This document shows positions 7,435 to 58,328 of a stretch of DNA of 62,294 nt, piece after piece. The stretch comes from a virus (Duplodnaviria; Caudoviricetes). The translations under genes and the position numbers were made by a program. Location of the stretch: positions 1 through 62,294 of IMG/VR virus record IMGVR_UViG_3300036790_000128; one strand, written 5' to 3'. The notes below the pieces were generated by a model. It was not told the DNA's origin. It saw only the letters and a list, made by a program, of their open reading frames with translations, and did no database searches. The number at the start of each line of letters is the position of its first letter. The first letter of the stretch is position 1.

Positions 7435-7484
7435 TTTGTGTCACGATAGGGCCTTCGTTGGATTGGCGCCGGATGCCGGTCAAC
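7435..7484 (-). repeat. 49-bp dispersed repeat R1 (50-bp variant)
   Basis: Reverse complement GTTGACCGGCATCCGG-CGCCAA-TCCAACGAAGGCCCTATCGTGACACAAA. Confidence 0.9.
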
Positions 7485-7499
7485 GGTCGGTTGTGCCAT

Positions 7500-8129
7500 T
7501 TAGAACGTTAGCGCATCCTGCACCGCAGGTTTCGGCTTTTCGATGAACATGTCGGGCTGCTTTAGGGCGTCGGATATGCGGCGGCAGGCGATGTCGAAAT
7601 ATTTGGGCTCAATCTCGATGCCGATGAACTTGCGGCCGAGCTTCGCGGCAGCGACACCTGTTGTGCCGGAGCCCATGAAGGGATCGAGGATAACCTGACC
7701 GTCGATCATCACCAGAATATCACGCATAACCGAAAGCGGCTTCTGCGTGGGATGATCAACACATTCCGCTTCATATTGAATATAGTTCGGCAAGATCGCC
7801 GCGCGGCGGAAAACACGGCACGTTTTCAGACCGTTGCGCTCAAAAATGCGCTCGTAATGCTGAGAACTGCAACCGTTTGGTTTGTGCCATATGTGGCATC
7901 CCGTCCAGTCCAAAGGAAACGGGTGAACAGCGGACCAAAAGATGAATTGTCGGCACCGTAAGTCACAATCGCCGAGAAAATATATTGTTGTTTGTCTAAA
8001 TCCTTTTTCGATGTCGGGGTATGGCGGATCAGTCACCACCGCATCGACCTTCGGCAGCGTCGGCAATACCTCGCGGCAGTCGCCGCAATACAGTGTCACG
8101 CCATCCGCAAGATGTTCAACTCGGCTCAT
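7500..8129 (-). CDS. DNA N6-adenine/N4-cytosine methyltransferase (beta class)
   Basis: VTDPPY, HPTQKP and LDPFMGSGTTG motifs. Confidence 0.92.
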   Translation of the reverse strand: MSRVEHLADGVTLYCGDCREVLPTLPKVDAVVTDPPYPDIEKGFRQTTIYFLGDCDLRCRQFIFWSAVHPFPLDWTGCHIWHKPNGCSSQHYERIFERNGLKTCRVFRRAAILPNYIQYEAECVDHPTQKPLSVMRDILVMIDGQVILDPFMGSGTTGVAAAKLGRKFIGIEIEPKYFDIACRRISDALKQPDMFIEKPKPAVQDALTF

Positions 8130-8147
8130 CTAGAATCCCTGCCTATC

Positions 8148-8196
8148 GTTGACCGAGTCCGGTGCCAATCCCACGAAGACCCTATCATGACACAAA
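8148..8196 (+). repeat. 49-bp dispersed repeat R2
   Basis: GTTGACCGAGTCCGG-TGCCAA-TCCCACGAAGACCCTATCATGACACAAA. Confidence 0.92.
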
Positions 8197-8208
8197 CCTT
8201 CCTACCAC

Positions 8209-8730
8209 TCAAAACACCGGATACCCATAGAGATAGAAATTACCCAATGCTGCTCCACCCTGCGGGGTTCCCACGTTGAGGTAGAGCGTGCTGAAATTCC
8301 ATATCACCGAGGTATCGGGTGTCAGCACGTCTGTCGTCGCACCGGAAACAACAAAGCCGGTCCCGGTAATTCCCGAGAGAGCCGTTTGCGGTGCCAATGC
8401 CGTTCCCTGCTGAAAGGGGTACGTATAGATTCCGGCCCGAGCCGTATTAAAGCTACCCTGTGTACCAAACACCATCGCCAACGAGACCCGCCATCCGATT
8501 GCCCCAGAGGGCAGCGCCAGAGATATCTGCGTATCCCCAGCCACATTGAAATTGACGTTATCGCTATAGCCGAGCAACAAGAGGCCCGGCGTGATGCCGC
8601 CAAGCCCGAACGCCGCCGTCCAGATTTGCTGCAACAGCGCCAATGAGGCCGGCGTAAGCGTCAGTATCTGCGGATTGAGGAATGGCGCCTGCCCGATCGG
8701 CGGCAGAACGGGAATCTTGGGACCGGCCAT
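8209..8730 (-). CDS. Putative tail/virion protein
   Basis: 173 aa, abuts the gp10-like gene. Confidence 0.55.
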   Translation of the reverse strand: MAGPKIPVLPPIGQAPFLNPQILTLTPASLALLQQIWTAAFGLGGITPGLLLLGYSDNVNFNVAGDTQISLALPSGAIGWRVSLAMVFGTQGSFNTARAGIYTYPFQQGTALAPQTALSGITGTGFVVSGATTDVLTPDTSVIWNFSTLYLNVGTPQGGAALGNFYLYGYPVF

Positions 8731-11469
8731 TTACATCCCCACCGAAATATCCGCATGGGCTCCGATGATCACCCGAGGCACGGGATCGGTGCAGGAGACA
8801 ACGAAAACGAACTGCCTGCCGTTGCCCATGCGCAGCCATCGCAGGCGTGTCAGGAACTGCCCCATCTTGCCCATCGATCGCCAGAACTGCAAAGGCGTGA
8901 ACGTATTCGCGCCATCGACCGACCAGCCAAGTTGAATCTGCGGATTTGAACCGGGACCGACCGCCGTTCCGACGCCCGCTTGAATATCCAGTTCGAAGCG
9001 CGAGAAGAACAGCCGCTTGCGGTCTTGATTATAGGGAATAGAATAGGCCAGCCCCCGGATGGTATTGCCGAGTTCAGTGTAGGTCGTCCAATCCAGCAGG
9101 TTCACATTGCCGTTGAAGGCGTCGCCCAGATAGGTATTGTTGAAGGCCCGAAACGCCGTTGTCGCGCGCCACACCCCAAGCGACGCATTATTGGCATCCC
9201 ATGATTCCCGATCATGCCAGCGGTTGGTTGAAATATCGAACACCAGGGTCCGCTTCGAAACCGGAAGCGTGAGGATGACGAACTTGTGGCCCTCCAACGT
9301 GTAGGTAAAGCAATATGCCTGCGTAATATCTCCGTCCTGGGCGATGACATGCTCGACCGAATGCGTCGAGACGCGGATCGGCACGGTCGATTGCAGCCGA
9401 TAGAAAATCTTGTCTGCGCCAAGAAAGAAGATCGCGCCGTCCTGTTTGAAGATGGTTTTTGGCGAGACGCATCCATAACTGATTCCTGCCCCGGTATAGC
9501 GAGCGAACGGGAAGCCCGGCGAGATTCCCGCATCGTACCAGAGTTCAAGATGTTCCTGGCAGATCACAAACAGAAGCTGGAGATTTTGCACCGTTCCCGT
9601 GATGAAATCGGGTTGCGATTCGGCGGACGCAAAGTTCAATCCATTGAATGTCGTGCCGTCATAGAGGTTCGACACGAACATCTCATTGGTGCCCATGCGA
9701 TCAAAGACGAAATACCCATCAAAAAAACAGACCGTGTTGGCCGGATAAAAATTAGGATCGGTGATCTGCTGGAAGCCATAGGTTGCCGACTGTGGATTGG
9801 TGTCGAAAATCCAACCCGCCGACGCCGCACCACTGACGATGCACAACTGGAATCCGTTGTCCGACATGCTGACAATATCGGAGGCGCCGATGCCAGACCC
9901 GACAATCGTCGCCACACCAACGACGTAACCGGAACCACCAGCAAGGCCGGCGAGCGACGCTATCGCGCCATTGACGGTCGCCACAGGAACAGAAAAACCA
10001 GAACCAGACCCGCCAAGATTTACATTCGAAGCCGACAGCACGTCGCCGATCACATAGCCGGTTCCGAGGGTGGCGAGCAGCACGCTACCGATCGCGCCAT
10101 TACTGACGGCCACGGTCGCCGTCGCGCCGGCACCGCTGCCTCCGGTCAGCGGCACGCCGTAATAGGTGCCGTTCACATAGCCAGCGCCACCCGTGATCGC
10201 CCCCAAGGACGCGATCAGTGGATTAGTGAGACTTGCGACCGAAATGGAAAACCCTGTTCCGCCACCGAGCGGCGCAGACAGAAGATCGCCGACCTGAAAA
10301 TTTATGCCGAAGGTTTGCAGAGAAACCAGCGTTATGACACCAGCCGTCACTCCGATGTTGGCCGTAGCGCCGGAGCCTGAACCTCCGGTCAATGGAACAT
10401 CAAAGAATGTCCCTAATGTCGATTGTGCGAGTTGATAGAGTGAATTTCCGGCCACGACATACGGCACGTCCTGTTTGAGCCATGACCCACGGCTACTGCC
10501 TGGTATATCGACGGACGTGACTGTGATGCTGAATCCAGACCCGGAACCGCCAAGAAAGCTGTTAGAACATGACAACACATCGCCGATATCATAATTGATG
10601 CCCGGAAAGATGACTGCAACCCCACTGACAGCACCGCTCGTCACCGTGATATTTGCAATCGCCCCCGAGCCGTGACCGCCTGTCAGCGGCACGTTCTTGA
10701 ATGCCCCAACGCCGGCGGAATTATAGCCGGACCCCGCCTGCAAAGAGGTCAGGGACGTGATCTGGCTTCCCGTCAATGTCGTCACTTGCAGGGAGACCGC
10801 GCCGCTATTGGCAGGAAGCGGCGGCGAGTTGGCGCTGAGAAGATCGCCAATATTGAAACCACCGCCGGGATTGACAATCCCAACGGTATCAACAGCAAAG
10901 AGCCCTGTCGGGGGATAGAAATGACACAACATATTGGCTGTTGCGCCGGAGCCTGAGCCTCCAGTCAGCGGAACATTTGAAAATGCGCCCTGATTTGCGT
11001 AACGACCGCCGCTAACAATAGCAATGGCGGCAATGCCTTGGCTTCCAATCCCATTAACTGTAATTGAAAAACCGGACCCGGTGCCGCCCAGGAAGGAATT
11101 CGAGGCACTCAATACGTCGCCCACCTTATAGGCCGTACCCGGTTGAGCCAAAGTACAGGTCGTCACCGCGCCGCCGCTGATCGTAATATTGGCTGTTGCG
11201 CCAGAGCCTGAGCCTCCAGTCAGCGGGACATTCTGAAATGTATTGGTGGCGTAACCTGAACCTCCCGCGAATGGCGCACCTGTCCCAGCAATCGCACCGA
11301 GGATCGTAGACGTATTCGCAAACGCCGACATGCCCGGCGCACCAAACAATGGCGTCTGCGATTTGGCTCCCTGCGGTTCTTTTTCGGTAAAGAAATTCAC
11401 CAGCCGCTGCGCATTCAAGGGCAGACTGCGGCTTTCTGCGGATTCGACGGCAAAGAGAATCTCCGGCAT
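8731..11469 (-). CDS. P22 gp10-like tail hub/DNA stabilization protein with inserted Gly-rich repeats
   Basis: SRSLPLNAQRLVNFF...LFGAPG, FFDGYFVF, FASAESQPD and SVDGANTF...LRWLRMG motifs; five VPLTGGxGxGAxA repeats. Confidence 0.85.
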   Translation of the reverse strand: MPEILFAVESAESRSLPLNAQRLVNFFTEKEPQGAKSQTPLFGAPGMSAFANTSTILGAIAGTGAPFAGGSGYATNTFQNVPLTGGSGSGATANITISGGAVTTCTLAQPGTAYKVGDVLSASNSFLGGTGSGFSITVNGIGSQGIAAIAIVSGGRYANQGAFSNVPLTGGSGSGATANMLCHFYPPTGLFAVDTVGIVNPGGGFNIGDLLSANSPPLPANSGAVSLQVTTLTGSQITSLTSLQAGSGYNSAGVGAFKNVPLTGGHGSGAIANITVTSGAVSGVAVIFPGINYDIGDVLSCSNSFLGGSGSGFSITVTSVDIPGSSRGSWLKQDVPYVVAGNSLYQLAQSTLGTFFDVPLTGGSGSGATANIGVTAGVITLVSLQTFGINFQVGDLLSAPLGGGTGFSISVASLTNPLIASLGAITGGAGYVNGTYYGVPLTGGSGAGATATVAVSNGAIGSVLLATLGTGYVIGDVLSASNVNLGGSGSGFSVPVATVNGAIASLAGLAGGSGYVVGVATIVGSGIGASDIVSMSDNGFQLCIVSGAASAGWIFDTNPQSATYGFQQITDPNFYPANTVCFFDGYFVFDRMGTNEMFVSNLYDGTTFNGLNFASAESQPDFITGTVQNLQLLFVICQEHLELWYDAGISPGFPFARYTGAGISYGCVSPKTIFKQDGAIFFLGADKIFYRLQSTVPIRVSTHSVEHVIAQDGDITQAYCFTYTLEGHKFVILTLPVSKRTLVFDISTNRWHDRESWDANNASLGVWRATTAFRAFNNTYLGDAFNGNVNLLDWTTYTELGNTIRGLAYSIPYNQDRKRLFFSRFELDIQAGVGTAVGPGSNPQIQLGWSVDGANTFTPLQFWRSMGKMGQFLTRLRWLRMGNGRQFVFVVSCTDPVPRVIIGAHADISVGM

Positions 11470-11475
11470 CGGCCT

Positions 11476-12486
11476 TTATCTCTGCGCCTCGTCATAACTC
11501 ATCCCGAAATAGATCGGTTCCGACTCGCGATCGAAGCCCTGCACGAGATCGAGCTTCTTTTCCGATTCCTGCAGGATGATCGCCCATCGCTGCGGCGGAC
11601 AATCGAATTCCGGTCCCATTTCCTTGGCCAGATTCCAGCCGATGGCATTGATCCATTCCTGTGGAAAATCGACCGTGTTGGCAGGTGTGTTGATGTCCAT
11701 CAGCGGCCGATACCAGGTGAATCGTGCGCCGAAATTCGCGTTCTGCGGCGTGAGCCATGCATAGTATTCGCCGGAAACAAGCTGCGGCGAATAAAAGAAC
11801 TGTGTGGTGATGCCGGGATTGAGCGGATTCGGCAGGTCCATGTATTCCTTGCGCGAGAGCACTGACATCGGCGTCAGCCGCGGGCCGTTGTTCTGGCCGC
11901 CCTGATAGTAGATCGTCCTCGAGCGCGGCACCTTCAAAGGCCGCACGATCTTGGTCGCATAGTCGAACACGTTGTTCTGCGCCGATGCGCTCGCGCCAGC
12001 GGGCAACGGAGTTGCAAACGTCACCACATTGTTGACCGGAGCGCCGCTGACCGTGGTCCAGAACGCAGCGCCGCTGTCGAGCACTATCCCAAAATTATCG
12101 CCAGCGTTGACCGTAACCCCATTGTAGTTCGTCGTGCTGTTGACCGTGACGGAGGTCGCCCCCGCCCCGATCGGCGCCGCAACCTGCATCGAGACCCACG
12201 AATTCGCGTCGCAGCAATTGTCAGGCCCGGTCCCGCCCGTCCCCGTCCCGCCGAGCAGATAACGCGCCTGCCCCTGCTGGAAGAACAGGATGGCTTCTTC
12301 CTCGGTCCACACATGAATGCCGGTCGCCATCCATTCCTTGATCATGGCGTTCATCGCCAGGACCGTGTCGGCATACTGACCGGCAGTCGGCGTTTCATCC
12401 TCCGCGATCACGCCAAGCTTGCGCAGCGCCATACTGACGATCGCGGTGGCGGCGGGATTGAACGACGATGTGTTCGACGTTGTCAT
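11476..12486 (-). CDS. Head-tail adaptor (P22 gp4-like)
   Basis: IVSMALRKLGV...LAMNAMIKEW N-terminus; DFPQEWINAIGWNLA C-terminus. Confidence 0.75.
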   Translation of the reverse strand: MTTSNTSSFNPAATAIVSMALRKLGVIAEDETPTAGQYADTVLAMNAMIKEWMATGIHVWTEEEAILFFQQGQARYLLGGTGTGGTGPDNCCDANSWVSMQVAAPIGAGATSVTVNSTTNYNGVTVNAGDNFGIVLDSGAAFWTTVSGAPVNNVVTFATPLPAGASASAQNNVFDYATKIVRPLKVPRSRTIYYQGGQNNGPRLTPMSVLSRKEYMDLPNPLNPGITTQFFYSPQLVSGEYYAWLTPQNANFGARFTWYRPLMDINTPANTVDFPQEWINAIGWNLAKEMGPEFDCPPQRWAIILQESEKKLDLVQGFDRESEPIYFGMSYDEAQR

Positions 12487-12504
12487 CTTTCATCCCAGCA
12501 TTAC

Positions 12505-12553
12505 GTTGACCGAGTCCGGCGCCCATCCCACGAAGGCCCCATCGTGACACACA
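12505..12553 (+). repeat. 49-bp dispersed repeat R3 (unpaired)
   Basis: GTTGACCGAGTCCGG-CGCCCA-TCCCACGAAGGCCCCATCGTGACACACA. Confidence 0.92.
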
Positions 12554-12558
12554 CTGCC

Positions 12559-13038
12559 TTACGGCAACCCCGGCACCGGAGGTGGCGAAGCCTGATAAAG
12601 CGTTACCAGATTCCCTGACGCCATCGTAGAGGGAAGCGGTCGTGAAAGCACAAGATTCGTCCCCACAGGCGCGATAGCAATCGTCGTGAAAAACACTGAG
12701 CCGCCATCCAGATCGGTCATGCAGCCGACCTTCGCTCCCTGGTAAAATCCGAAGATAGTCTGAACGGGAATCGCCGTCTGACCAACTACGGCATTTGCAG
12801 TCGTCTGCGTGCTGATCGGACCGACGTAGACGTTTGCGCCCAAGGGACGTGGATCTGGAACAGATTGAATGTCTGGGACGCCCTTGACCAAATCCTGAGG
12901 CTGGCGAGGCTCCCAGCGCGCCTCATCTACAATCAGGCCGGTCCATTCCTTGCGGGTGCGCTCTGCCCTTTGGGGAAAACCTGTTCGATCATCGGTTCTG
13001 TAGAACGAACCGCGGAGGTAGCGGAGTTTGCGGCCCAT
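12559..13038 (-). CDS. Conserved phage structural-region protein
   Basis: DDRTGF...RKEWTGLIV...WEPRQPQD motif seen upstream of adaptor genes. Confidence 0.65.
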   Translation of the reverse strand: MGRKLRYLRGSFYRTDDRTGFPQRAERTRKEWTGLIVDEARWEPRQPQDLVKGVPDIQSVPDPRPLGANVYVGPISTQTTANAVVGQTAIPVQTIFGFYQGAKVGCMTDLDGGSVFFTTIAIAPVGTNLVLSRPLPSTMASGNLVTLYQASPPPVPGLP

Positions 13039-13086
13039 TAGTTTTCCACATTAGCAGCAGGCTACCGCAGCGCTCAACACAAAACT

Positions 13087-13680
13087 TTAATTGCTTTCGT
13101 ATGTACCACTGATAATCAATAAGTCGCTACCTGTCGGATTGCCTAACGCCGCTAAGAACACACGAAATGTCGTAGCGTTGGAACCAAGAGCCGTGTCAAG
13201 TCCAGCGCCGCTAGCGCCATCCTGGCCGGAGAAAGCATAGAAAACATTTGATAATGTCAACGCCGCAACAGGTAGCGTACCAATGGTAATCGTCCCTGAG
13301 CAGGTGCCAATGGCTGCTTGAACAACAGTAGTAAACCATACTGTTTTGCCAAGAACCTTATATCGACCGATCTGAATTGAGTAAGCGCCAACAGCTCCCG
13401 TGCCGCAGGTGATCGTCGGTGAGAATGTTGACCACGCTGTTAGCGATAATCCTGTAACGGCACCGGCCGTTAGCCCGCTAGCCGTGCCCGTAAGATTGGT
13501 TCCAACGCCAGCCGAAGGCGTGCCGAGATCACCCGCACCTTGTAGGCACGTCCCAGTCGTCGTACCGAACGCAGGGCATGGCGGATACGGCCCAACCGGC
13601 TGCCCTTGCTGCGCCTGCGCAAAAACAAACAAACCGCAGCAGAACAGAGCAACGGAAAGAACCCCAGCAACGAATCTCAT
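13087..13680 (-). CDS. Signal-peptide-bearing protein with tail-fibre-tip-like C-terminus
   Basis: MRFVAGVLSVALFCCGLFVFAQA; WSTFSPT...GRYKVLGKTV...ISGTYE. Confidence 0.6.
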   Translation of the reverse strand: MRFVAGVLSVALFCCGLFVFAQAQQGQPVGPYPPCPAFGTTTGTCLQGAGDLGTPSAGVGTNLTGTASGLTAGAVTGLSLTAWSTFSPTITCGTGAVGAYSIQIGRYKVLGKTVWFTTVVQAAIGTCSGTITIGTLPVAALTLSNVFYAFSGQDGASGAGLDTALGSNATTFRVFLAALGNPTGSDLLIISGTYESN

Positions 13681-14273
13681 TTGAAATCACCGCTGATAAA
13701 GGCATGAGTCGATGCGGTCTTCGTAAAGCACCCCGTAGTCGATGCACCAATGGTGATTCCCGTCGCAAAAGCCACAGGAACAGGAAACGCCGCGCTATAG
13801 GACGTCGTCCCCAAAGGCATCGCATAGCATTTGGCTGGCGTTACCCCTCCATCAGTCGGCGCCGAGGTCGCATTGTAGATCATGATCCACCACGCCGCAC
13901 CTGAGAGCGTAGAATCCGCGCTAATGTTGAATGAGTAGAGATTCCCTGCCGATCCTTTGATGATCTGATTGGCACAAAGCGATGAACAGGCCACCGTGGA
14001 AAGCCCGGCTAGCGCCTCGGATGAGGGTGCCGGCACCACACCGTTGCCCGCAGCGATAGTTGGCGTGGTGGGCAATGTTACTGCTCCACCGCCGCCTCCG
14101 CTGCTGTCAACATTGATCGACCCATCCGAATTGACCTTGAGCTGCTGTGTCGGAGTTGTCGAATCGGCAATGAACACCGTGCCGAGATAATTAGTCTGCG
14201 CCGCCCACGCGACAACGCTGGCGCTGATCAGAGCACACCCAGCAGCAATCAAAACGACTTTCCACGTCTTCAT
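13677..14273 (-). CDS. Signal-peptide-bearing putative virion accessory protein
   Basis: MKTWKVVLIAAGCALISASVVAWA; IKGSAGNLYS...PVAFATGIT. Confidence 0.6.
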   Translation of the reverse strand: MKTWKVVLIAAGCALISASVVAWAAQTNYLGTVFIADSTTPTQQLKVNSDGSINVDSSGGGGGAVTLPTTPTIAAGNGVVPAPSSEALAGLSTVACSSLCANQIIKGSAGNLYSFNISADSTLSGAAWWIMIYNATSAPTDGGVTPAKCYAMPLGTTSYSAAFPVPVAFATGITIGASTTGCFTKTASTHAFISGDFK

Positions 14274-14286
14274 CGTTCTGATTCCC

Positions 14287-14724
14287 CTAGCTCTGCGGAA
14301 TGCCCTTGGTGCCGCGCATCTTCACCGTATAGCCGGAGTTCACCATCGCGCCCAAGGTGGTGAATTTGATCTTGCCGGTAGCGCCTGTCAAAAGCACGCC
14401 GGCTGAACTCACAGCCGCAAGTCCACCGACATTATCGAAGCAAATCCGGCCGAACCCGCCAAGCACCAGTGCATTCTGAGAACTCGTGGCGTCCCAGATG
14501 ATTTCCAGCGCCATGCCCTTCACATCATATTCGATCTCGCGAATCTTGATGTGCTGCACCGGATAGAAATTCTGGCCATAGAGAAAGATGCCAAGTGGAC
14601 CGGCTGACGATCCGTCCACCTTGACGACGTTTGACTCCCCCGTCCCATCAGACAGGTTCGTGAACACATAGACCCAGTTCTTGCGGCCGTTCTCAATCAG
14701 CGCGCTCGTGACAGCATCGGCCAT
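14287..14724 (-). CDS. Putative virion protein
   Basis: FTNLSDGTGESNVVKVD motif; RBS GGAGG. Confidence 0.65.
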   Translation of the reverse strand: MADAVTSALIENGRKNWVYVFTNLSDGTGESNVVKVDGSSAGPLGIFLYGQNFYPVQHIKIREIEYDVKGMALEIIWDATSSQNALVLGGFGRICFDNVGGLAAVSSAGVLLTGATGKIKFTTLGAMVNSGYTVKMRGTKGIPQS

Positions 14725-14748
14725 GACGGCGATCCTCCGTCAAATGGC

Positions 14749-15792
14749 TCAGCTCGGGTTGATGCCAAGGCCCGTCGTGCCGGCAGTCGGCGGCCCGCCA
14801 TCGACGTAGCAGTTGGCGAGGAAATTGGTATCGCCCCATTTCGTGGCGCCGACCGACGTGCATTGCTGCATCAGCACATAGCCGCCGGGTGACGCATTGG
14901 TGAATGACCCGACTTCGTTGATGGCGGTAGCCCCAGATTTGATCGCATTGAGGAACGCACAATGCTGGAACCACTGCTCGCGATCGACACAGGCCGCACC
15001 CGCACCGAGAATGTGCAGCGGAGTGGCCGCCGTCGTATCCATGATGAACGAGCAATTGCGGAACACATTGCGTGGCGTACCGCCGGTCAGTTCAAGCGAT
15101 GCATTCGCCACCGCGCCGCGGGCCACGGTATCGAGCCCGAAATTGCAGTGTTCAAACGTGGTTTCACCGATACCCGCGCCGCCAAGCTTGAAGGACCGCG
15201 AGCCGGCGTCAGCCGCCGATGTCGCATCGCCCATGCCGCCGAAGTCCATGTTCCAGTACGAATTCCGGCCGCCGTTATCGGTCCAGCAGATTTGATTGGT
15301 GCCGCCGGTCGAGAAGCCGTGGAACAAGCTGACGTTGGCGAACAGGCATCCGCCCCCGGTCACAGCGACGAAATTTCCAGAACCGAATGTCGCCTGCGTA
15401 TAGGTGCCGGTCGGCGGCGCAATGCGAGCCCGCTGCGCAACTTGCGTCGGGGCACCGATGCCGACCAGATGCAATGCATTCTTGTTCCAGTTCAGAACGC
15501 CCGTAGTCGCTAGGGGATTGATCGATTGTGCTCCAGCCAATGAAAGCCGCGCCGTTCCGGCAGCAGCGCCATCGCCGATCAGCACCACCACGTCATTGCG
15601 TCCAGAGACGGCCTTATTGACCGCCTGATAGAGCGTCTGCAGCGCCTGGCTCGGGCTTGTTCCCGCGTTACCGTCCAGTCCGTTGACCGGATCGACGAAC
15701 CACCATGTCCCGGTAAACGGCAAGCCGCCGATCCCGCCAAGAACTGGAACGCCGAAAGAGGTCACGCCATTCGGGAAATTCGTAAGGCCCAT
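14749..15792 (-). CDS. Putative virion protein with beta-helix-like domain
   Basis: TNFPNGVTSFGVP N-terminus; FVDPVNGLDGNAGTSPSQA motif; repeated FxNCxF. Confidence 0.65.
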   Translation of the reverse strand: MGLTNFPNGVTSFGVPVLGGIGGLPFTGTWWFVDPVNGLDGNAGTSPSQALQTLYQAVNKAVSGRNDVVVLIGDGAAAGTARLSLAGAQSINPLATTGVLNWNKNALHLVGIGAPTQVAQRARIAPPTGTYTQATFGSGNFVAVTGGGCLFANVSLFHGFSTGGTNQICWTDNGGRNSYWNMDFGGMGDATSAADAGSRSFKLGGAGIGETTFEHCNFGLDTVARGAVANASLELTGGTPRNVFRNCSFIMDTTAATPLHILGAGAACVDREQWFQHCAFLNAIKSGATAINEVGSFTNASPGGYVLMQQCTSVGATKWGDTNFLANCYVDGGPPTAGTTGLGINPS

Positions 15793-15805
15793 GATCGTTC
15801 TCCTA

Positions 15806-15895
15806 TGGCTGCCCGCGGGATTCGAACACCGCGCTTACCCCAAGACCTGGGACAGCGGTTGAGCCAAAGGCCGCCATAAAGGAGAGCGGCAGCCA
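15806..15895 (-). other. tRNA-like structured leader directly upstream of an RBS
   Basis: 8-bp closing stem TGGCTGCC/GGCAGCCA, T-arm-like CGCGG-TGTTCGAATC-CCGCG, ends in CCA; no canonical D or anticodon arm. Confidence 0.4.
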
Positions 15896-16212
15896 GAATC
15901 GGAAGGATGTTCGACGATGCCTGACTGCCTAGAGAACAGCGTTATGGGATTCGCTGTGTCCGGTCAAGGGGAATGGGGAAAGGGTAGTGGGCTCTTTTAA
16001 TTATGGCGATCCAGGGTTTGACCCCACAGTGCCTACCGCAGTGCGGTTGATATATCAACACATAAGTGCTGCATATTTTGCTCACAGGCCGGTTTTGGCC
16101 GCGTCATAGAGCCGTACTTTCCCGGCTCTCGACCGCAAAGGGAGCCGATTTTGAGCAATAGTCGGGAAATGCGCCGCCTACAGGGGAAAGGTCACAGGAA
16201 GGTAGGTTTAGA

Positions 16213-16262
16213 TTTGTGTCACGAGAGGGCCTTCGTGGGAGCAGCGCCGGATGTCGGTCAAC
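16213..16262 (-). repeat. 49-bp dispersed repeat R4 (50-bp variant)
   Basis: Reverse complement GTTGACCGACATCCGG-CGCTGC-TCCCACGAAGGCCCTCTCGTGACACAAA. Confidence 0.9.
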
Positions 16263-16301
16263 GCTTGGCTGTGCCATTTAGAACATGCCAAGATGTTATA
16301 G

Positions 16302-16640
16302 TCATCGTATTTTCCAATCTGGGAAAGGCTTTTCGATTGCTCGGTCCCACCATCGCTTGCGCAGCCCGCGAAAGCCGGGAATTGCCTCATCGATTGTGCA
16401 GGCAACGGCGTTGCCCTTGCGCACAATCCCGCCGCCCCACATGCCTGTTACGGGTGCCCAGCCGCGCAATTTTCCATGCGCCACGACGTAGAAACGATCA
16501 CCGGGCTTCGCGAGGGATTTGAAGCTATGCTGAGTGAACCAGCCCCATTCCTCGCCAGTCTCAGGATCGCCAGCGGCGTCGCCTTCCGCGATCCATTCCC
16601 CCCAAAAATCTTTCGGGCAAGTGCCAACAAGATCGACCAT
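16302..16640 (-). CDS. ASCH/PUA-like hypothetical protein (cassette cargo)
   Basis: KPGDRFYVV..GKLRGWAPV and IPGFRGLR patterns; lies between R4 and R5. Confidence 0.5.
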   Translation of the reverse strand: MVDLVGTCPKDFWGEWIAEGDAAGDPETGEEWGWFTQHSFKSLAKPGDRFYVVAHGKLRGWAPVTGMWGGGIVRKGNAVACTIDEAIPGFRGLRKRWWDRAIEKPFPDWKIR

Positions 16641-16682
16641 TTTCAGATGCCCCTAGTCCTAGTAGGTCTTAGTAGAGCCATC

Positions 16683-16731
16683 GTTGACCGAGTCCGGCGC
16701 CAATCCCACGAAGGCCCCATCGTGAAACAAA
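16683..16731 (+). repeat. 49-bp dispersed repeat R5
   Basis: GTTGACCGAGTCCGG-CGCCAA-TCCCACGAAGGCCCCATCGTGAAACAAA. Confidence 0.92.
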
Positions 16732-16743
16732 CCTTGACTGTGC

Positions 16744-16773
16744 AAAAAAAGCCGCCCAGGCGAGAGCGGCTTT
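16744..16773 (-). terminator. Rho-independent terminator
   Basis: AAAGCCGC stem, loop, GCGGC followed by T7 on the minus strand. Confidence 0.7.
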
Positions 16774-16890
16774 AAGTTTGGTGAAGCGCAGTTACGCGAG
16801 AGAGAGATTAGGACGGAAGGGATGTTGGGTCAATGCCGCTCCAGGCAGTCTCGGGGATAGACGCGGCTTCATCGATCCATGCCTATCGGG

Positions 16891-16919
16891 TTGACACATA
16901 CAAGCCCCTGTGCTAGTGT
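16891..16919 (+). promoter_or_regulatory. Sigma70-like promoter in the IS left end
   Basis: TTGACA-17 nt-TAGTGT. Confidence 0.55.
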
Positions 16920-16943
16920 TTCGTCATTGGGCGATCCCGCCCT

Positions 16944-17183
16944 TTGATGGAGAGTGTGATGAAAAAGCCGCGAAAAATGACCTGCTACGTTGGCCGAAGC
17001 CCCGATGGTGTGCGCCGTCTTTTTGCGCAGGATCAGGACCCGGCGCGCGCGATGGCAGACGCCTTTGATGCCGCCCGCGAATACATCAAAGGGCGACCGG
17101 ATTGCGCGCCGCTGGCAAACTGGAGCTTCGATCTGGCGAGCATTCCAGACATGAAGGCCGTGATGTACGGGCAGGAGGGCTGA
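16944..17183 (+). CDS. IS passenger hypothetical protein
   Basis: 79-aa ORF inside the IS, same strand as the transposase. Confidence 0.6.
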   Translation: MMESVMKKPRKMTCYVGRSPDGVRRLFAQDQDPARAMADAFDAAREYIKGRPDCAPLANWSFDLASIPDMKAVMYGQEG

Positions 17184-17186
17184 GCC

Positions 17187-17459
17187 ATGGCCCGCGAAAT
17201 TGGCATGAACTGCTGGCCTTACGGCAACCCGCGTGGGTGCGATGCCCAATTCAATATCGCGTTGAAACGCGGCGAGCGTCGGGAAGATGCTGACAAGCGC
17301 CTTGAACGCGAAGCTGGCGAAGCGGGTTGGTGCATCGGGCATTATGATGGTCAGGGATTTTACGTGTGCCCCGATCACAAAACCTGCATTTATGACCCGG
17401 TTCCGCTCAATGCAGGCAGAAAACCTATCCGCGTTCGACGCGCGGCGGGGGAGGCGTAA
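17187..17459 (+). CDS. IS passenger hypothetical protein (Cys-containing)
   Basis: 90 aa, RBS GGAGG, abuts the transposase start. Confidence 0.6.
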   Translation: MAREIGMNCWPYGNPRGCDAQFNIALKRGERREDADKRLEREAGEAGWCIGHYDGQGFYVCPDHKTCIYDPVPLNAGRKPIRVRRAAGEA

Positions 17460-18503
17460 ATGCCCCCGCACGCCGACGTGCTGCAATGGGAACATCTGCC
17501 GTTCCCCAAGTCGCTCCGGGACTTTCAGCGGCTGTTCCCGGACGACGCGGCCTGCGCTCGATACCTGGAAGGCGCCAAGTGGCCAAAGGGCTTTGAGTGC
17601 CCGCACTGCCACGAAAAGGGCGAGCCGTTCCGCATGGCGACGCGGACCAGCGTCCTGACCTGCCGCAAATGCCGCAAGCAAACGTCGCTGACGGTTGGGA
17701 CCGTGATGGCCCGGACGCATACGCCCCTGACAACGTGGTTTTGGGGCGCGTATCTGGTCTCGACCGTGACTCCGGGCATATCCGCCGTCCAATTCCAGCG
17801 CCAGCTTGGCCTTACCGTTTACGAGACGGCGTTCGGCATCCTGCACAAGCTCCGCGCTGGCATGGTGCGCCAAGGCCGCGACCGGATCGGCGGCAACCTT
17901 GGCCGTGGCGATCACGTCGAAATTGACGAAACCTGGATTGGCGGCAAGACGCGCGGCGAAGGCCCGGGCACTCACGATATGACGCTGGTCGCTGCCGCGG
18001 TCGAAGTCCGCACGCGCCCGGCCAAGAAGGGCGACAAGCCCGCGCGGCGCGGCGGTCGCTATGCCGGTCGCCTTCGCCTCGAAATCGTGCCAACACGCGG
18101 TGCCAAGTCGCTGTGCGGCTTTGTAGAAGCGGCGGTAGAGCCGGGCGCCATGGTCATCACGGACGCATGGGGCGGCTACAATGGGCTTGGTGCCCTCGGC
18201 TATGACCATCTGCCGGTCGCGCAAGCCGACGATCCCAAGGTGGCCGAAGAGTACCTGCCGATCATCCACCTTGTTTTCAGCAATCTCAAAGCGTGGCTGC
18301 ACGGCACGCATCACGGGGCGATCAGCCCCAAGCATCTGCAAACTTACCTCAATGAGTTCACGTTCCGATTTAACCGGCGCTTCTATCCCTTCAATGCGTT
18401 CCGCTCGTTGCTCGGCATCGGAACGAACGGCGAAGGCCCGACTTACGACGGGCTGTACGACGGAACCTGGAAACACGCGACGATGGAAAGCCATCATGAC
18501 TAA
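17460..18503 (+). CDS. IS1595-family DDE transposase
   Basis: Zn ribbon CPHC...CRKC, VEIDETWIGG, ITDAWGGY, KHLQTYLNEFTFRFNRR. Confidence 0.95.
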   Translation: MPPHADVLQWEHLPFPKSLRDFQRLFPDDAACARYLEGAKWPKGFECPHCHEKGEPFRMATRTSVLTCRKCRKQTSLTVGTVMARTHTPLTTWFWGAYLVSTVTPGISAVQFQRQLGLTVYETAFGILHKLRAGMVRQGRDRIGGNLGRGDHVEIDETWIGGKTRGEGPGTHDMTLVAAAVEVRTRPAKKGDKPARRGGRYAGRLRLEIVPTRGAKSLCGFVEAAVEPGAMVITDAWGGYNGLGALGYDHLPVAQADDPKVAEEYLPIIHLVFSNLKAWLHGTHHGAISPKHLQTYLNEFTFRFNRRFYPFNAFRSLLGIGTNGEGPTYDGLYDGTWKHATMESHHD

Positions 18504-19285: not shown

Positions 19286-19360
19286 GACTTTTACCTCGCA
19301 TTATGTTGCCTGATTGACTACGCAATTCATAATGCGATATTGCATATACAATGTCAATGG

Positions 19361-19391: not shown

Positions 19392-19425
19392 TATAATCCT
19401 AAGTAGTTGATTATATTACGCTATT

Positions 19426-21647: not shown

Positions 21648-21671
21648 TTGGGTTTTCCTTTTAGGACAGGA

Positions 21672-47791: not shown

Positions 47792-48360
47792 ATACCGTAG
47801 CAATGGAACGTGAACCGCTGGTGTCGATCAAGGGCACCGTGACGGAGAAAGTAGCGGCCGCAAGCTCGCGCCAACCAGGCAAGGTGAAACTGTCCAATGG
47901 ACAATTCCTTCACGCCTTCGCCGAGAAGCTCCAGCAGATACAGCCGGGGTTGGCTTATGACTTTGGCTGTTCGCGCAGCGAGTTCAAGGGCGTCAATCAG
48001 AACACGATCCGCGCCTTCAAGCTGATTGGAGATGTAGGGCCGGCTCCCGCCAATTTCATTACGCGCGAAGAAATCGAAGCGCAGCGTCAGCCTCGTGCGG
48101 CCCAGGCTGTCCCAACCAATCTGCGGGGCGAGTATTCCGTTGTCGAGACGGCGCCCCAGCAGGCTCCCAAGGCCGCGCCGGCGGGCAATCAGTATTACCG
48201 GCCTACGGCGCCCCGCGATGCAGAGCGGATGTTTGTCTGCGCCGAACTCGGTCATTTTATTGATCGCGGCTCGATTAAGTGCGATGCTGATGAACTGGTC
48301 GAAGCCATTAATACACTGCGGTCGGCATGGCAGGCGACATTCGGAGCGGACGAGCAGTAG
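47788..48360 (+). CDS. Hypothetical protein (possible OB-fold/SSB-like)
   Basis: Beta-rich N-terminus with low-complexity linker; weak inference. Confidence 0.4.
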   Translation: MNTVAMEREPLVSIKGTVTEKVAAASSRQPGKVKLSNGQFLHAFAEKLQQIQPGLAYDFGCSRSEFKGVNQNTIRAFKLIGDVGPAPANFITREEIEAQRQPRAAQAVPTNLRGEYSVVETAPQQAPKAAPAGNQYYRPTAPRDAERMFVCAELGHFIDRGSIKCDADELVEAINTLRSAWQATFGADEQ

Positions 48361-48362: not shown

Positions 48363-48411
48363 TTTGTGTCACGCGGGGACAACGCGAACTGAGAGACCGG
48401 ACTCGGTCAAC
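48363..48411 (-). repeat. Dispersed repeat R14 (subtype 2)
   Basis: Reverse complement GTTGACCGAGTCCGG-TCTCTC-AGTTCGCGTTGTCCCCGCGTGACACAAA. Confidence 0.88.
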
Positions 48412-48447: not shown

Positions 48448-48972
48448 ATGCCAAACCACGTAATCAACGAAATCATCTTCCGCAATGTGGACGTGGCGAA
48501 GCAGAACGAAATGCTGATTATGATCCGAAACGGCCTTGGCGAAGTGGATTTTGAAATTCTCGTGCCGATTCCGATCAATGTGTGGCGCGGCAGCGTCGGC
48601 GCAAAACATGAAAAGGCTTTCCGACAAAACGCGCTTGATTGGGCGCGGCTGAATTGGGGGACCAAGTGGAACGCCTATGGGCAAAAGCCTATCGAGCGCA
48701 CGGATGACACATTGATCCTCCGCTTTCAAACTGCGTGGGGACCACCTTACGGGTGGCTATGCGCGATCTTCAATTTCTTCAAGCTGCCTTTTGAGCACAA
48801 CTGGTTCAGCGAAGGGCATGACCGTGGCGTCTGCGGCAAGTTCAACTGGTCGCGCATGGACGTTCTTGGCGATGATCCATGGAACGAAGAACCGGCCGAT
48901 GAGGCCATGCACCGGCATCTGCACAAGCTGTTGTGGGGTGTCGAAGAATTTTCCGGCGAAGATGCGGCCTAG
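48448..48972 (+). CDS. DUF1281/YubB ferredoxin-like fold protein
   Basis: MPNHVIN, DFEILVPIP, DWARLNWGTKWNA, FQTAWGPP. Confidence 0.75.
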   Translation: MPNHVINEIIFRNVDVAKQNEMLIMIRNGLGEVDFEILVPIPINVWRGSVGAKHEKAFRQNALDWARLNWGTKWNAYGQKPIERTDDTLILRFQTAWGPPYGWLCAIFNFFKLPFEHNWFSEGHDRGVCGKFNWSRMDVLGDDPWNEEPADEAMHRHLHKLLWGVEEFSGEDAA

Positions 48973-49223
48973 CCGCGTTGAAGACCGCGGAGTCGCAATC
49001 ATGACGAAGAACGTCAGCCTGAGCGAGCAGATTGAGCAATACGAGGATGACCGCGCGCTCCTTGATCCGATCCTGAAAGAGGCTCGCCAAGACCGCGACG
49101 AGATCAAAAAGCTACGTGCAGCCCTAACCGAAATCTCAAAGCACTACGCCAACCAAGACATGAACCACGTCGATTTCCGAGTGATGGCAAAAAATCTCGC
49201 CGACGCCGCGCTGGTGACGGAGT

Positions 49224-49242
49224 AGGCCCTCTCGTGATACAA
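49224..49242 (+). repeat. Partial dispersed repeat (outer half)
   Basis: AGGCCCTCTCGTGATACAA, compare R4 AGGCCCTCTCGTGACACAA. Confidence 0.6.
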
Positions 49243-51280: not shown

Positions 51281-52018
51281 ATGGGCGAAAACAGCAAAAT
51301 CGAGTGGACGGATCACACTTGGAATCCTTGGATGGGATGCACCAAGGTCGGGGCGCCTTGTGACAATTGCTATGCCGAGGACATGATGGATCATCGGTAC
51401 GGGAAGGTCCGGTGGGGCGCGGGTGAGGATCGCAAGCGGACATCGGCCGCCAATTGGAAAGAGCCGTTCAAGTGGAACCGCGTTGCCGAGGCTGAGGGTT
51501 CGCGTCCCTTCGTATTTTGCTTATCTCTCGGCGACATCTGGGACAATGAGGTCGATCCGTTGTGGCGCCGTGCTGCGTTCGACGTGATGCAGCGCACATC
51601 GAATCTAACCTACCTCCTGCTGTCCAAGCGCATCGGCAACGCCGCGAAGATGTGCGATCCCCTTTCAGGTAATCCGGCGCTTCCTACGAATGCGGCGCTG
51701 GGCGCAACATTCGGCAACCAAGAAGAATACGACCGGGACCGGATCAAGCTGAAAGACGCGGGCGAGACGCTGGGAGCCCGCTTCACATTCGCCAGCATTG
51801 AACCAATGCTTGGCCCGGTCATCTTGGATTGCAACGCGCCAGACTGGATCATCTGCGGAGGCGAGAGTGGTCGTAATGCCAGGATGATGGACCCGCAATG
51901 GGCGCGCGATCTTCGTGACGGGGCCAGACGCTTCAATCGCACATTCTTCATGAAACAGATGACCGGAAAAGCGCCGATACCGGATGACTTGCTGATACGC
52001 CAGTTTCCATCGCGTTGA
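51281..52018 (+). CDS. DUF5131 (phage Gp37/Gp68) family protein
   Basis: IEWTDHTWNPWMGCTKV...CDNCYAE, SIEPMLG, WIICGGESG, FFMKQ. Confidence 0.9.
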   Translation: MGENSKIEWTDHTWNPWMGCTKVGAPCDNCYAEDMMDHRYGKVRWGAGEDRKRTSAANWKEPFKWNRVAEAEGSRPFVFCLSLGDIWDNEVDPLWRRAAFDVMQRTSNLTYLLLSKRIGNAAKMCDPLSGNPALPTNAALGATFGNQEEYDRDRIKLKDAGETLGARFTFASIEPMLGPVILDCNAPDWIICGGESGRNARMMDPQWARDLRDGARRFNRTFFMKQMTGKAPIPDDLLIRQFPSR

Positions 52019-52317: not shown

Positions 52318-52366
52318 GTTGACCGAGTCCGGCGTCAATCCCACGAAGGCCCCATCGTGACACAAA
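52318..52366 (+). repeat. 49-bp dispersed repeat R15
   Basis: GTTGACCGAGTCCGG-CGTCAA-TCCCACGAAGGCCCCATCGTGACACAAA. Confidence 0.92.
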
Positions 52367-55634: not shown

Positions 55635-55683
55635 TTTGTGTCACGATAGGGCCTTCGTGGGATCGATGCCGGACTCGGTCAAC
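55635..55683 (-). repeat. 49-bp dispersed repeat R16
   Basis: Reverse complement GTTGACCGAGTCCGG-CATCGA-TCCCACGAAGGCCCTATCGTGACACAAA. Confidence 0.92.
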
Positions 55684-55697: not shown

Positions 55698-56420
55698 TTA
55701 GAAAGTTAGTGCCTCCTGCACCGCAGGCTTCGGCTTTTCGATAAACATATCCGGCTGTTTCAGGGCTTCGGATATGCGGCGGCAGGCGATGTCGAAGTAT
55801 GGCTCATGAATCTCTATGCCGATGAATTTGCGGCCGAGCTTGACGGCTGCAACGCCGGTGGTGCCAGAGCCCATGAAGGGATCGAGGATGATTTGTCCGT
55901 TAACGCGCTTGATGCACCAATCCATCAATGCAACGGGTTTTTGACTCACGTGGGCTGTCTCCTCGCCCATGATGTCGCCGGTATATTCGAAACGGCGCCG
56001 GCCGATGCTATCGGGAGCATTGAATACGTAAATCCCGCAGCCCTTGTTCTGCCAAGCCATCTCAGCATCGGAAAGAAACGTGCCGTAGTGCTCGGGGTAG
56101 CGCTTTAGCCAAACAAGTGTTGTGCCAAGCGGCAGATTTTTTGCAAAATGATTCGCGCCCCACAACACAACTTCGTCGAAGACCAACCAAGGCGTCGGAT
56201 CAAACTCGACATCGTCACCTTCGATTAAGCGATCAGTGCGACCTTGCCCACGCCGCAGCCCTTTCGTTCGTCCAGAAAAACGAGTGCTATCCGTGTCGTA
56301 ATTCATCCCATACGGCGGATCAGTCACCACCGCATCGACCTTGCCCAGCGTCGGCAATATCTCGCGGCAGTCGCCGCAATACAGTGTCACGCCATCCGCA
56401 AGATGTTCAACTCGGCTCAT
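55698..56420 (-). CDS. DNA N6-adenine/N4-cytosine methyltransferase, paralog of 7500..8129
   Basis: VTDPPYG, HVSQKP, LDPFMGSGTTG. Confidence 0.92.
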   Translation of the reverse strand: MSRVEHLADGVTLYCGDCREILPTLGKVDAVVTDPPYGMNYDTDSTRFSGRTKGLRRGQGRTDRLIEGDDVEFDPTPWLVFDEVVLWGANHFAKNLPLGTTLVWLKRYPEHYGTFLSDAEMAWQNKGCGIYVFNAPDSIGRRRFEYTGDIMGEETAHVSQKPVALMDWCIKRVNGQIILDPFMGSGTTGVAAVKLGRKFIGIEIHEPYFDIACRRISEALKQPDMFIEKPKPAVQEALTF

Positions 56421-56438: not shown

Positions 56439-56487
56439 GTTGACCGAGTCCGGTCTGCTTCCCACGAAGGCCCCGTCGTGACACAAA
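56439..56487 (+). repeat. 49-bp dispersed repeat R17
   Basis: GTTGACCGAGTCCGG-TCTGCT-TCCCACGAAGGCCCCGTCGTGACACAAA. Confidence 0.92.
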
Positions 56488-57735: not shown

Positions 57736-57760
57736 GGCGTGAGTGTTTCCTGTGTCGTTG

Positions 57761-57810
57761 TCTGTTTCACGATAGGGCCTTCGTGGGATTCACACCGGAT
57801 GCCGGTCAAC
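57761..57810 (-). repeat. 49-bp dispersed repeat R18 (50-bp variant)
   Basis: Reverse complement GTTGACCGGCATCCGG-TGTGAA-TCCCACGAAGGCCCTATCGTGAAACAGA. Confidence 0.9.
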
Positions 57811-57832
57811 GGTCGGCTGCGGCGAAGTTCTT

Positions 57833-58018
57833 TCAATCGCCGCAGCGCAACGAGTAAGTCATCGCATCCATGCCGCATTTGGTGCAGACAGTCGTCCCGC
57901 CGCACTCGCGCCCTTCGTCGTCGGTCAGCGCACGCCAGCCCTGAAAGTCGTGTTCGCAGGCATCCGGCTTTGGCGTAACACGAAAGAATAAGCCTCGCGG
58001 GGCGTCGTGCTCATCCAT
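57833..58018 (-). CDS. Small zinc-binding protein (cassette cargo)
   Basis: CEHDF...CTKCG; start overlaps the acb2 stop. Confidence 0.6.
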   Translation of the reverse strand: MDEHDAPRGLFFRVTPKPDACEHDFQGWRALTDDEGRECGGTTVCTKCGMDAMTYSLRCGD

Positions 58019-58254
58019 CAGAATGTCTCTGGTCGCGCGATGCTGCGCACGAGGGACATAAAACCTTTCTGTAAATCAGTTCTTGAGATTGCGAGCCACC
58101 GCTTATCAACATTAGGCCGCTCCATTTCAAACTTTTTGCACAGATCGCCGACCTGCTCAGCGAGTGCCTTTGCGGCGTTCATATCTGCGATTTCTTCCGT
58201 CGAAAGATCACGGTAGCCTTTGATTTTTTGATGCTGATTATCCACCATTTTCAT
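58018..58254 (-). CDS. acb2: Acb2-like anti-CBASS cyclic-nucleotide sponge
   Basis: DNQHQKIKGYRDLSTEEIADMN..K...RWLAISRTDLQKGFMSLVRSIARPETF matches the Acb2 signature as I recall it. Confidence 0.88.
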   Translation of the reverse strand: MKMVDNQHQKIKGYRDLSTEEIADMNAAKALAEQVGDLCKKFEMERPNVDKRWLAISRTDLQKGFMSLVRSIARPETF

Positions 58255-58279
58255 TCTTCCTTCCTTTAAGAAAGCCGTG

Positions 58280-58328
58280 GTTGACCGAGTCCGGTCTACT
58301 TCCCACGAAGGCCCCATCGTGACGCAAA
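58280..58328 (+). repeat. 49-bp dispersed repeat R19
   Basis: GTTGACCGAGTCCGG-TCTACT-TCCCACGAAGGCCCCATCGTGACGCAAA. Confidence 0.92.

Follow-up and report, generated by a model that had tools for sequence, protein, structure and literature searches.

A two-box intergenic signal of uncultured 57-70 kb phages and the exchangeable genes between its copies

A Two-Box Intergenic Signal Shared by Uncultured Phages

The DNA analyzed here (the window) is the whole IMG/VR virus record IMGVR_UViG_3300036790_000128, a 62,294-bp phage genome (Caudoviricetes) with a completeness rating of 100%, in which a 49-bp repeat lies in inverted pairs around methylase and other accessory genes. This repeat is the window's version of a two-box intergenic signal shared by a set of uncultured 57-70 kb phages, and related genomes carry different genes between the same two ends, the cargo having been swapped, cut down or lost. 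The best reading of these data, to which we give a probability of about 0.5, is a DNA-level expression signal that doubles as portable homology for gene shuffling, similar to the promoter-early-stem-loop elements (PeSLs) of T4-type phages. It is still an open question how phages acquire and trade counter-defence genes, and here a conserved 45-bp signal marks the sites of such genes, i.e., two N6/N4 methylases, a C5 methylase, and an Acb2-type sponge.

The element is composed of Box 1 (G[T/G]TGACCGA[G/A/T/C]TCCGG) and Box 2 (C[T/C][C/A]TCGTGA[C], also written CTCTCGTGA), separated by a spacer of ~19 bp. The combination of Box 1 and TCGTGA was found in 58 IMG/VR stretches from ~30 contigs, several of which are complete 57-70 kb genomes with terminal repeats. 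We collected 132 distinct copies from ~30 uncultured viral contigs at no more than two mismatches; within this set, whose collection required near-exact boxes, 13 of the 15 Box 1 positions have the same base in at least 131 of the 132 copies, and only positions 2 and 10 vary. The spacer sequence is free, yet a few types recur across genomes. A Box 1 variant that is one base longer is present in three window copies and in the genomes G007, G010, and G011. Copies running with the transcription of their neighbors (co copies) differ in sequence from those opposed to it (anti copies), since the latter mostly continue as CCGG-TC.NTC, and the former more often start with GGTGACC.

A pattern search of the window with up to three mismatches returned 11 matches (0 in 100 shuffles), and an nhmmer profile built from them gave 15 full-length matches at E<1e-9. 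Two more copies on the minus strand, at 41427 and 48363, keep both ends around a different middle (E 9e-6 and 7.5e-5), and partial matches were found at 38026 (+, first 19 nt), 49224 (+, last 19 nt), 48238 (-), and 29336 (-). The repeat described in the original prediction, made from the letters of the window, is real, although its 18 full and 2 partial copies become 17 full and 2-4 partial ones. The seven inverted pairs that it listed, with their GTTGACC ends inward, were borne out by nhmmer and by inspection of the flanks. It was also right about target-site duplications, which are found in none of the seven pairs, the longest common flank word being 6 nt, at unrelated offsets.

The element itself, with its two fixed boxes, its free spacer, and its two orientation classes with different spacing rules, is undescribed. 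Blastn of a 64-nt element query against 50,697 cultured phage records gave no match, and Rfam cmscan of the window at E<=1 gave none on any copy. A search for Box 1, in three spellings, in published papers, exclusive of their supplements, found no instance, and a word search on phage intergenic repeats and cassettes found nothing matching. A scan of metagenome contigs with the window-type pattern returned a single stretch. Among 185,579 bacterial species genomes, 16 stretches match the pattern, 15 of which were discarded as chance-like, as they are scattered one by one over unrelated phyla and lack the family spacer or a full Box 2. The convincing one (L101, 4701-4743, anti) lies on an 810-kb contig of an alphaproteobacterial metagenome-assembled genome, among genes of the SNF2 helicase and ParB/MT-A70-like kinds. 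This 6.3-Mb genome has no other true copy, and the one it has is possibly what remains of a prophage and a clue to the host group.

Head-to-Head Units and Turnover of Their Cargo

Head-to-head pairs are a family-wide unit, in which the order anti copy, gene, co copy recurs along transcription. In 15 genomes or contigs, the gaps between head-to-head neighbors have a median of 650 bp (16 of 22 below 1.3 kb), whereas those between tail-to-tail neighbors have a median of 3,671 bp (5 of 21 below 1.3 kb); the difference is significant by the Mann-Whitney test (p 0.002; 0.01 without the window). Single copies are conserved as well as paired copies.

The original prediction proposed to look in related phages for different cargo between the same ends, and this was found in two slots, each of which is without elements in a third genome. 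In slot 1, between a conserved 304-aa gene and a 271/315-aa gene, unrelated genes of 135 aa (G013) and 117 aa (G008) are located between alignable anti and co copies, and G007 has another small ORF (open reading frame) there, with no elements. In slot 2, G013 carries an anti copy, 228 bp, and a co copy, and G007 an anti copy, ~330 bp, and a decayed co copy, while G008 has a 61-aa gene and no elements.

The genome G002 is a close relative of the window (81-95% nucleotide identity) and has elements at positions matching 12505, 16683, and 21672. One of its slots is half empty, lacking both the gene for a 112-aa protein and the co copy found at 16213 in the window, while the anti copy stays. No clean empty site was found among the relatives, given that G002 retains one copy and the slots of G007 and G008 hold other DNA. 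The 112-aa gene is 82% identical in nucleotides to a gene of G010, with a homology that runs exactly from start to stop and with no elements nearby; a cargo gene free of the repeats is an outcome that the original prediction had named as refuting it. In the window, the 112-aa unit retains the last bases and the 3' flank of the methylase units, so that the 112-aa gene must have taken the place of a methylase inside older flanks. The two N6/N4 methylase units have ~160 bp in common at one end and ~260 bp at the other around an unrelated middle, the ends of the two genes being near-identical. Finally, a DHH gene is reduced to 41 codons between two copies in the window, whereas in G007 it has its full length between an anti copy and a variant co copy.

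Spread and Homogenization of the Copies

The proteins that the window has in common with other element-bearing genomes are encoded only in the early region (DUF1937, MT-A70, exonuclease-like, 190-aa, DUF968/HNH, and DUF5131 proteins), and no terminase or capsid protein is shared with them; the structural modules of the phages in this set differ. On the other hand, no element was detected in the stretches examined of L077 and L078, two more distant structural relatives of the window. Thus, the element has moved into an unrelated structural module.

Within the window, six copies that include both orientations are 0-3 nt apart, compared with 2-4 nt for the three window/G002 pairs at matching positions. 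The likeness of the copies within the window points to possible exchange among them. In the region 3001-23000, the contigs of four metagenome runs break at the repeats. Cross-joints between copies (e.g., 7485->16679, 21656->16213, and 7429->16212) have short sides or low depth and 85% likeness, and no inference on excision or inversion was drawn from them.

Position, Orientation, and Structure of the Element

The 132 copies are intergenic and occur in both orientations, 43 being co and 67 anti, whereas the other 22 are mixed or lie at contig ends. In the window, where the original prediction counted 10 entry-type and 10 exit-type copies, our own gene calls give 10 copies with transcription and 9 opposed to it.

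A long-ORF start lies within 70 nt of Box 2 in 36 of the 43 co copies, and 33 of these 36 starts are ATG. The start is only 5-9 nt after TCGTGA in 11 of the 36, and a Shine-Dalgarno-like word was found in only 8 of 31. In the anti copies, Box 2 directly adjoins the stop codon with which the upstream gene ends, and a start is found on the other side of Box 1 in 58 of 67, at 15-24 nt beyond Box 1 in 24 of these 58; a Shine-Dalgarno-like word is present in 24 of 48, and any ORF of at least 40 aa in the forward direction of the copy itself in 11 of 67. From these sequence relations, we conclude that the two orientations probably represent two functional classes, and the co copies look like a putative promoter with short or absent leaders. 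No RNA fold signal was detected in the 43 co and 67 anti copies compared with shuffles (mean z-scores from -0.16 to +0.09 on both strands), and the element was concluded to be read as DNA.

If TCGTGA is taken as a -10 box, Box 1 is centered near -41. In activator-dependent phage late promoters, such as those served by Mu C/Mor and P2 Ogr, a class II activator site replaces the -35 element near this position. The location of Box 1 is reminiscent of them, as is the spread that such promoters would have along structural operons, but those systems are not known to have anti-oriented copies, which the element has, and an activator is only putative here. A scan with sigma-70 and terminator consensus sequences gave counts not above those of shuffles. 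Readings as sigma-54 or extracytoplasmic-function (ECF) sigma spacers, made by eye, were dropped because the spacings or motifs are not common to all copies. Box 2 as an extended Shine-Dalgarno sequence was dropped as well, since it forms at most four contiguous pairs with the 16S tail. Methylation at GANTC was also discarded: Box 1 holds this motif, N being its variable base, but the one-base-longer variant does not. The two N6/N4 methylases resemble CcrM in the cofactor domain only. A search for a reader protein by phylogenetic profile was not discriminating; apart from the window, 11 element-bearing genomes were profiled, of which 10 have DUF1937, and its name does not indicate a DNA-binding fold. 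As a separate observation, positions 40079-40178 of G013 carry two copies back to back where converging genes meet. Their Box 1 ends are only 15 nt apart, and each copy is anti to its own neighbor.

A Proposed Expression Signal Doubling as Recombination Homology

In the reading that we prefer, a sequence-specific factor would read the element as double-stranded DNA, and the element would act in gene expression. In co orientation, the element occupies a promoter-like place, Box 2 being a few bases upstream of start codons, most of which have no Shine-Dalgarno sequence, and in anti orientation, it occupies the gap from a stop codon to the Shine-Dalgarno sequence of the next gene. Since ~45 bp of near-invariant sequence recur at the gene boundaries of otherwise diverged genomes, they might serve also as portable homology or as a preferred recombination breakpoint. 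Accessory genes (methylases, Acb2, DHH, and others) would gather between an anti and a co copy, their exchange, truncation or loss leaving both ends in place, and the copies of one genome would become homogenized. The mover of the cargo would probably be homologous recombination. An exonuclease-like gene (273 aa; PHROG exonuclease, 1.2e-5) and the adjacent 190-aa gene (46970-48360, +), which are common to other element-bearing genomes, are candidate recombination functions.

The closest known kind, by analogy, seems to be the PeSLs. PeSLs of T4-type phages are short conserved intergenic motifs that extend from the upstream stop codon to the next Shine-Dalgarno sequence and start. They are concentrated near genes that are variable and non-essential, closely related phages differ at them by insertions, deletions, and replacements, and they are regarded as regulatory signals that are also recombination points (PMC2839356, PMC4122927). 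They consist of sigma-70 consensus promoters plus a stable stem-loop, all oriented along transcription, and as direct repeats they yield excised mini-circles (PMC2839356, PMC4122927). The element resembles PeSLs in its stop-to-start location beside variable genes and at the boundaries of differences between relatives. It differs from them in that its box spacing is not of sigma-70 type, it has no fold signal and no stable terminator stem-loop, half of its copies run against transcription, and its unit is a head-to-head inverted pair.

Several points weigh against the preferred reading. What suggests a promoter-like function is position only, a search for RNA runs that contain the sequence having listed none, and no sigma-70 -10 box is found at 16-18 bp from TTGACC, the spacing from TTGACC to Box 2 being ~30 bp. 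No phage RNA polymerase or sigma factor was found among the window proteins covered by our profile scans (~70 of roughly 100); a motif search for a polymerase gave none either, and the 1,001-aa ORF is fibre-like. The 67 copies of 132 that oppose transcription are not explained by a simple promoter, the role of the anti class is unaccounted for, and the orientation classes themselves depend on a crude codon-usage gene caller of our own, which supplied all gene calls. Homologous exchange between inverted copies can neither insert nor excise a gene, so that the head-to-head arrangement has no explained origin. Moreover, slots vary also in genomes that have no elements there, and thus, variability does not depend on the elements. 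Two single copies were examined for a shift in the identity between the window and G002; none is seen, and hence no visible breakpoint.

If the preferred reading is true, the PeSL idea would be extended beyond T4-type phages with a different geometry, and the element would be of practical use for locating accessory and anti-defence genes in the genomes of uncultured phages.

Alternative Explanations

A purely regulatory site (promoter, operator or boundary), beside which accessory genes are found because insertions survive only at intergenic boundaries, is a rather unlikely account. It agrees with the way in which the element fills the space from stop to start, with invariant boxes around a free spacer, with the G002 counterparts of three window copies at matching positions, with the variation of slots without elements, and with the lack of an identity shift at single copies. 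It does not explain why head-to-head neighbors are much closer than tail-to-tail ones, why copies within a genome are more alike than the matching G002 copies, why a gene is cut exactly at a copy, or how the element entered an unrelated structural module.

The original prediction proposed that the repeats are cassette ends or recombination sites. Part of this stands, since the pairs recur and their cargo is exchangeable, while the hallmarks of a mobile cassette are missing, which is the reason to prefer a family-wide intergenic signal used by recombination. Dedicated mobile cassettes would be non-autonomous head-to-head units with the Box 2 ends outermost, moved by an enzyme supplied in trans, for which an IS1595-type transposase or the conserved DUF968/HNH nuclease would be candidates. 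We consider this unlikely, although the recurrence of tight pairs across genomes and the different cargo between the same ends agree with it. So does the presence of the element in genomes without the structural genes of the window together with its absence from the structural relatives L077 and L078, since copies must have spread.

Contrary to the original prediction, which saw no recombinase, the window contains an insertion sequence (IS) of the IS1595 family (~16878-18543) whose DDE transposase is encoded at 17460-18503 (+; Pfam 1e-31). This IS is inserted at or just beyond the 3' end of an Endonuclease VII-domain gene and has its own terminal inverted repeats of 25-30 bp (CATGCCTATCGG..TTGACACATACA), unlike the element, and an 8-bp target duplication (CATCGATC). 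Near-identical relatives without the IS exist, as 16869 is joined to 18544 in contigs of four runs that come from four studies, and a 77% identical transposase is found at the same place in G002. IS1595-like transposase genes are present in 6 of the 15 genomes or contigs assembled, the related ones in G002, G005, G008, G009, and G010 not being flanked by elements. The autonomous version to be sought according to the original prediction was not found, given that the sole transposase of the window has different terminal repeats and no flanking elements. G001, G006, and G007 have 7-12 elements and no such transposase, and G006 is also devoid of the HNH gene. The left end of the IS is weakly like the Box 2 end (2 of 500 shuffles scored as high), but at this end only, in one of four comparisons and in the wrong orientation for the pairs, so that this likeness is a lead only.

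Other observations also argue against mobile cassettes, i.e., the lack of target-site duplications in all seven pairs, the single copies kept at matching G002 positions, the half-empty G002 slot that retains one copy instead of zero, and the G010 cargo gene without ends. The comparison with miniature inverted-repeat transposable elements (MITEs) and other non-autonomous DDE derivatives is similar: inverted ends around a short cargo, many intergenic copies, and a transposase in some genomes are common features, but here there are no duplications, single copies are equally conserved, the ends of the resident IS differ, and a free spacer separates two boxes that are fixed across diverged genomes. 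A true cassette system, in which inverted 45-bp sites delimit single-gene slots for methylase and anti-defence genes and a dedicated enzyme reads both boxes to load, swap or invert the cargo, is doubtful; it retains some probability because the role of the anti class and the way in which the inverted pairs arose are open. If true, it would represent the phage equivalent of the integron, with another site architecture.

It is quite improbable that the copies are recognized by a site-specific recombinase, as integron-like attC sites or within an invertase system. GTTGACC and GGTCAAC match at 6 of 7 positions the attC core motifs (GTTRRRY and RYYYAAC), there is one gene per unit, and inverted sites could invert the cargo. 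Integron gene cassettes are likewise single-gene accessory units bounded by a recurring site, with examples in phages (PMC9892861). In contrast to them, no integrase or serine recombinase family was found here among the ~70 proteins scanned, and the element is not an imperfect palindrome of the bulged attC type, with fold z-scores of ~0 on both strands (RNA parameters). Moreover, the copies occur in both orientations and not in a one-directional array, and there are two inverted sites per gene instead of one, the cargo lying between core-like ends and not beside one site. Repetitive extragenic palindromic (REP) sequences and REPINs with REP-associated tyrosine transposases (RAYTs) also differ, since the element has no fold signal and no HUH family was found among the proteins scanned.

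An RNA-level element (intercistronic terminator, processing or stabilizing hairpin, or small RNA) is the least credible explanation, for although anti copies directly follow stop codons, many of them extend Box 1 to a 5-bp palindrome (GACCG-N4-CGGTC), and the commonest spacer type reads CACGA-N8-TCGTG with a compensatory change in copy 41613, the fold energies equal those of shuffles on both strands in both classes, there is neither a U-tract nor an Rfam family, two spacer types lack the dyad, and the conservation of the same boxes in both orientations is incompatible with sequence-specific RNA recognition.

Copies and Cargo along the Window

The first methylase unit ends downstream with a co copy at 7435-7484 (-; nhmmer E 8e-12) that has the Box 1 variant with one additional base (GTTGACCGGCATCCGG). 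Its cargo, at 7500-8129 (-), encodes an N6/N4 DNA methyltransferase of 209 aa (Pfam N6_N4_Mtase, 3.9e-22), and the anti copy at 8148-8196 (+; pattern and nhmmer) has its Box 1 end 19 nt before the ATG. The second unit is composed of a co copy at its downstream end (55635-55683, -; pattern), a gene for an N6/N4 methyltransferase of 240 aa (55698-56420, -; 2.2e-22), and an anti copy (56439-56487, +; pattern). Pfam upheld these cargo assignments of the original prediction as well as those of the C5 methylase, the Acb2 and the DUF1281 genes, and the DHH assignment was upheld by the G007 homolog; the 'ASCH-like' protein had no Pfam family in either of two scans.

This last protein is the 112-aa one, encoded at 16302-16640 (-). 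The co copy at the downstream end of its unit (16213-16262, -; nhmmer) has the longer Box 1 variant and shares TTCTAAATGGCACA with the methylase units, and the anti copy (16683-16731, +; pattern and nhmmer) is the sole copy retained at this slot in G002. The interval from the latter to the IS contains, at ~16735-16790, a hairpin rich in G+C (GCCGC..GCGGC) that is bordered by an A-run and, on its opposite side, by a T-run. It has the look of a strong terminator of minus-strand transcription, although it is absent from the output of the consensus scan.

The C-5 cytosine DNA methyltransferase gene (36961-38004, -; Pfam DNA_methylase, 2.3e-15) has no stop of its own: its last 16 codons and its stop codon come from the repeat (36961-37011), the co copy at 36963-37011 (-; pattern) lying inside the 3' end of the ORF. 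On the other side is a decayed anti copy (38026-38075, +; nhmmer) with one change in Box 1, a 'CAGTTCGCG' spacer, and Box 2 lost. The DHH remnant (41482-41607, -), i.e., the first 41 codons of a DHH/DHHA1 phosphoesterase gene, was recognized by tblastn to G007 16082-16165, where the full-length homolog has 287 aa (DHHA1, 7.9e-9). It is flanked by a co copy of another spacer type, also present in G013 (41427-41475, -; nhmmer), and by an anti copy (41613-41661, +; nhmmer).

The pair with a partial end starts with an anti copy of the 'CAGTTCGCG' spacer type right after the 190-aa gene (48363-48411, -; nhmmer). Its cargo (48448-49225, +) comprises a DUF1281_C protein of 174 aa (Pfam at 48448-48972, 4.6e-8) and a 74-aa ORF, and it is closed by a partial co copy with the Box 2 part only (49224-49242, +; nhmmer E 0.058). 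The last pair consists of a co copy with the longer Box 1 variant (57762-57810, -; nhmmer), 25 nt upstream of the ATG of a GH25 lysozyme gene, and an anti copy (58280-58328, +; pattern). They bracket a cargo (57833-58248, -) with an Acb2/Tad1-type sponge of 76 aa (58018-58248; Pfam Acb2_Tad1_hairpin, 1.3e-15) and a 61-aa Cys-rich ORF, for which no Pfam family was found.

Five copies are single. One anti copy (12505-12553, +; pattern and nhmmer) lies 19 nt before the ATG of a 336-aa head-tail adaptor-like gene, a position kept in G002, and another (45270-45318, -; pattern) precedes a conserved 53-aa gene (ATG 45346). The co copy at 21672-21720 (-; pattern) has an ATG 23 nt downstream and an element at the matching position in G002; G004 and G007 also have an element ahead of similarly sized gene runs. 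The co copy at 44507-44555 (+; pattern) is followed by a Shine-Dalgarno sequence and an ATG 13 nt downstream, and that at 52318-52366 (+; pattern) is located before the DUF968/HNH-like gene.

Gene Content and Other Features of the Genome

The record is circularly closed. The ORF that runs from 893 to 3 reads in frame over the record ends to 59246; this end-spanning ORF (1-893 plus 59246-62294) has 1,313 stop-free codons and encodes a fibre-like, G/T/S-rich protein. The G+C content is 58%, and no tRNA genes were found in the window. The minus strand carries the genes of two stretches (~42.5 kb to 1, and 62.3 to 52.9 kb), and the plus strand carries those between 43 and 52.9 kb. PHROG names include a terminase, a portal, a head-closure/structural protein, and a tail transglycosylase. 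No close cultured phage relative was revealed by megablast, for which 48 kb of the window gave short methylase matches only, and the closest terminase match by tblastn has 43% identity. The recombination-type genes of the window are the Endonuclease VII-domain gene, the exonuclease-like gene, and the HNH-like (DUF968) gene.

A sub-threshold Rfam match to M23 sRNA at 10097-10159 (-), in a 912-aa structural gene (32.6 bits versus a gathering threshold of 41.2), is probably due to chance. At ~15795-15990 (-), upstream of a 347-aa gene (14749-15792), there is a host-type promoter-like pair, CTTGAC-N16-CATAAC, which is conserved in G002 too. The leader behind it, ~190 nt long, includes a tRNA-like T-arm and a CCA string (GGTGTTCGAATCCCGCGGGCAGCCA), where neither ARAGORN nor Rfam calls a tRNA. 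The contigs of all four metagenome runs skip a 208-bp stretch (15975-16182) that has a 9-nt direct repeat (GGGGAAAGG) at its edges and holds a perfect 14-bp palindrome (GTTGATATATCAAC).

Counting the three cargo methylases, the genome encodes at least four DNA methylases. Additional genes of modification or nucleotide metabolism encode an MT-A70 methylase fused to HTH and DUF3102 (40291-41436), a DUF5131 protein (51281-52018), a NADAR domain protein (22866-23393), and a DUF1937 protein (39702-40133), the last being nucleoside deoxyribosyltransferase-like.

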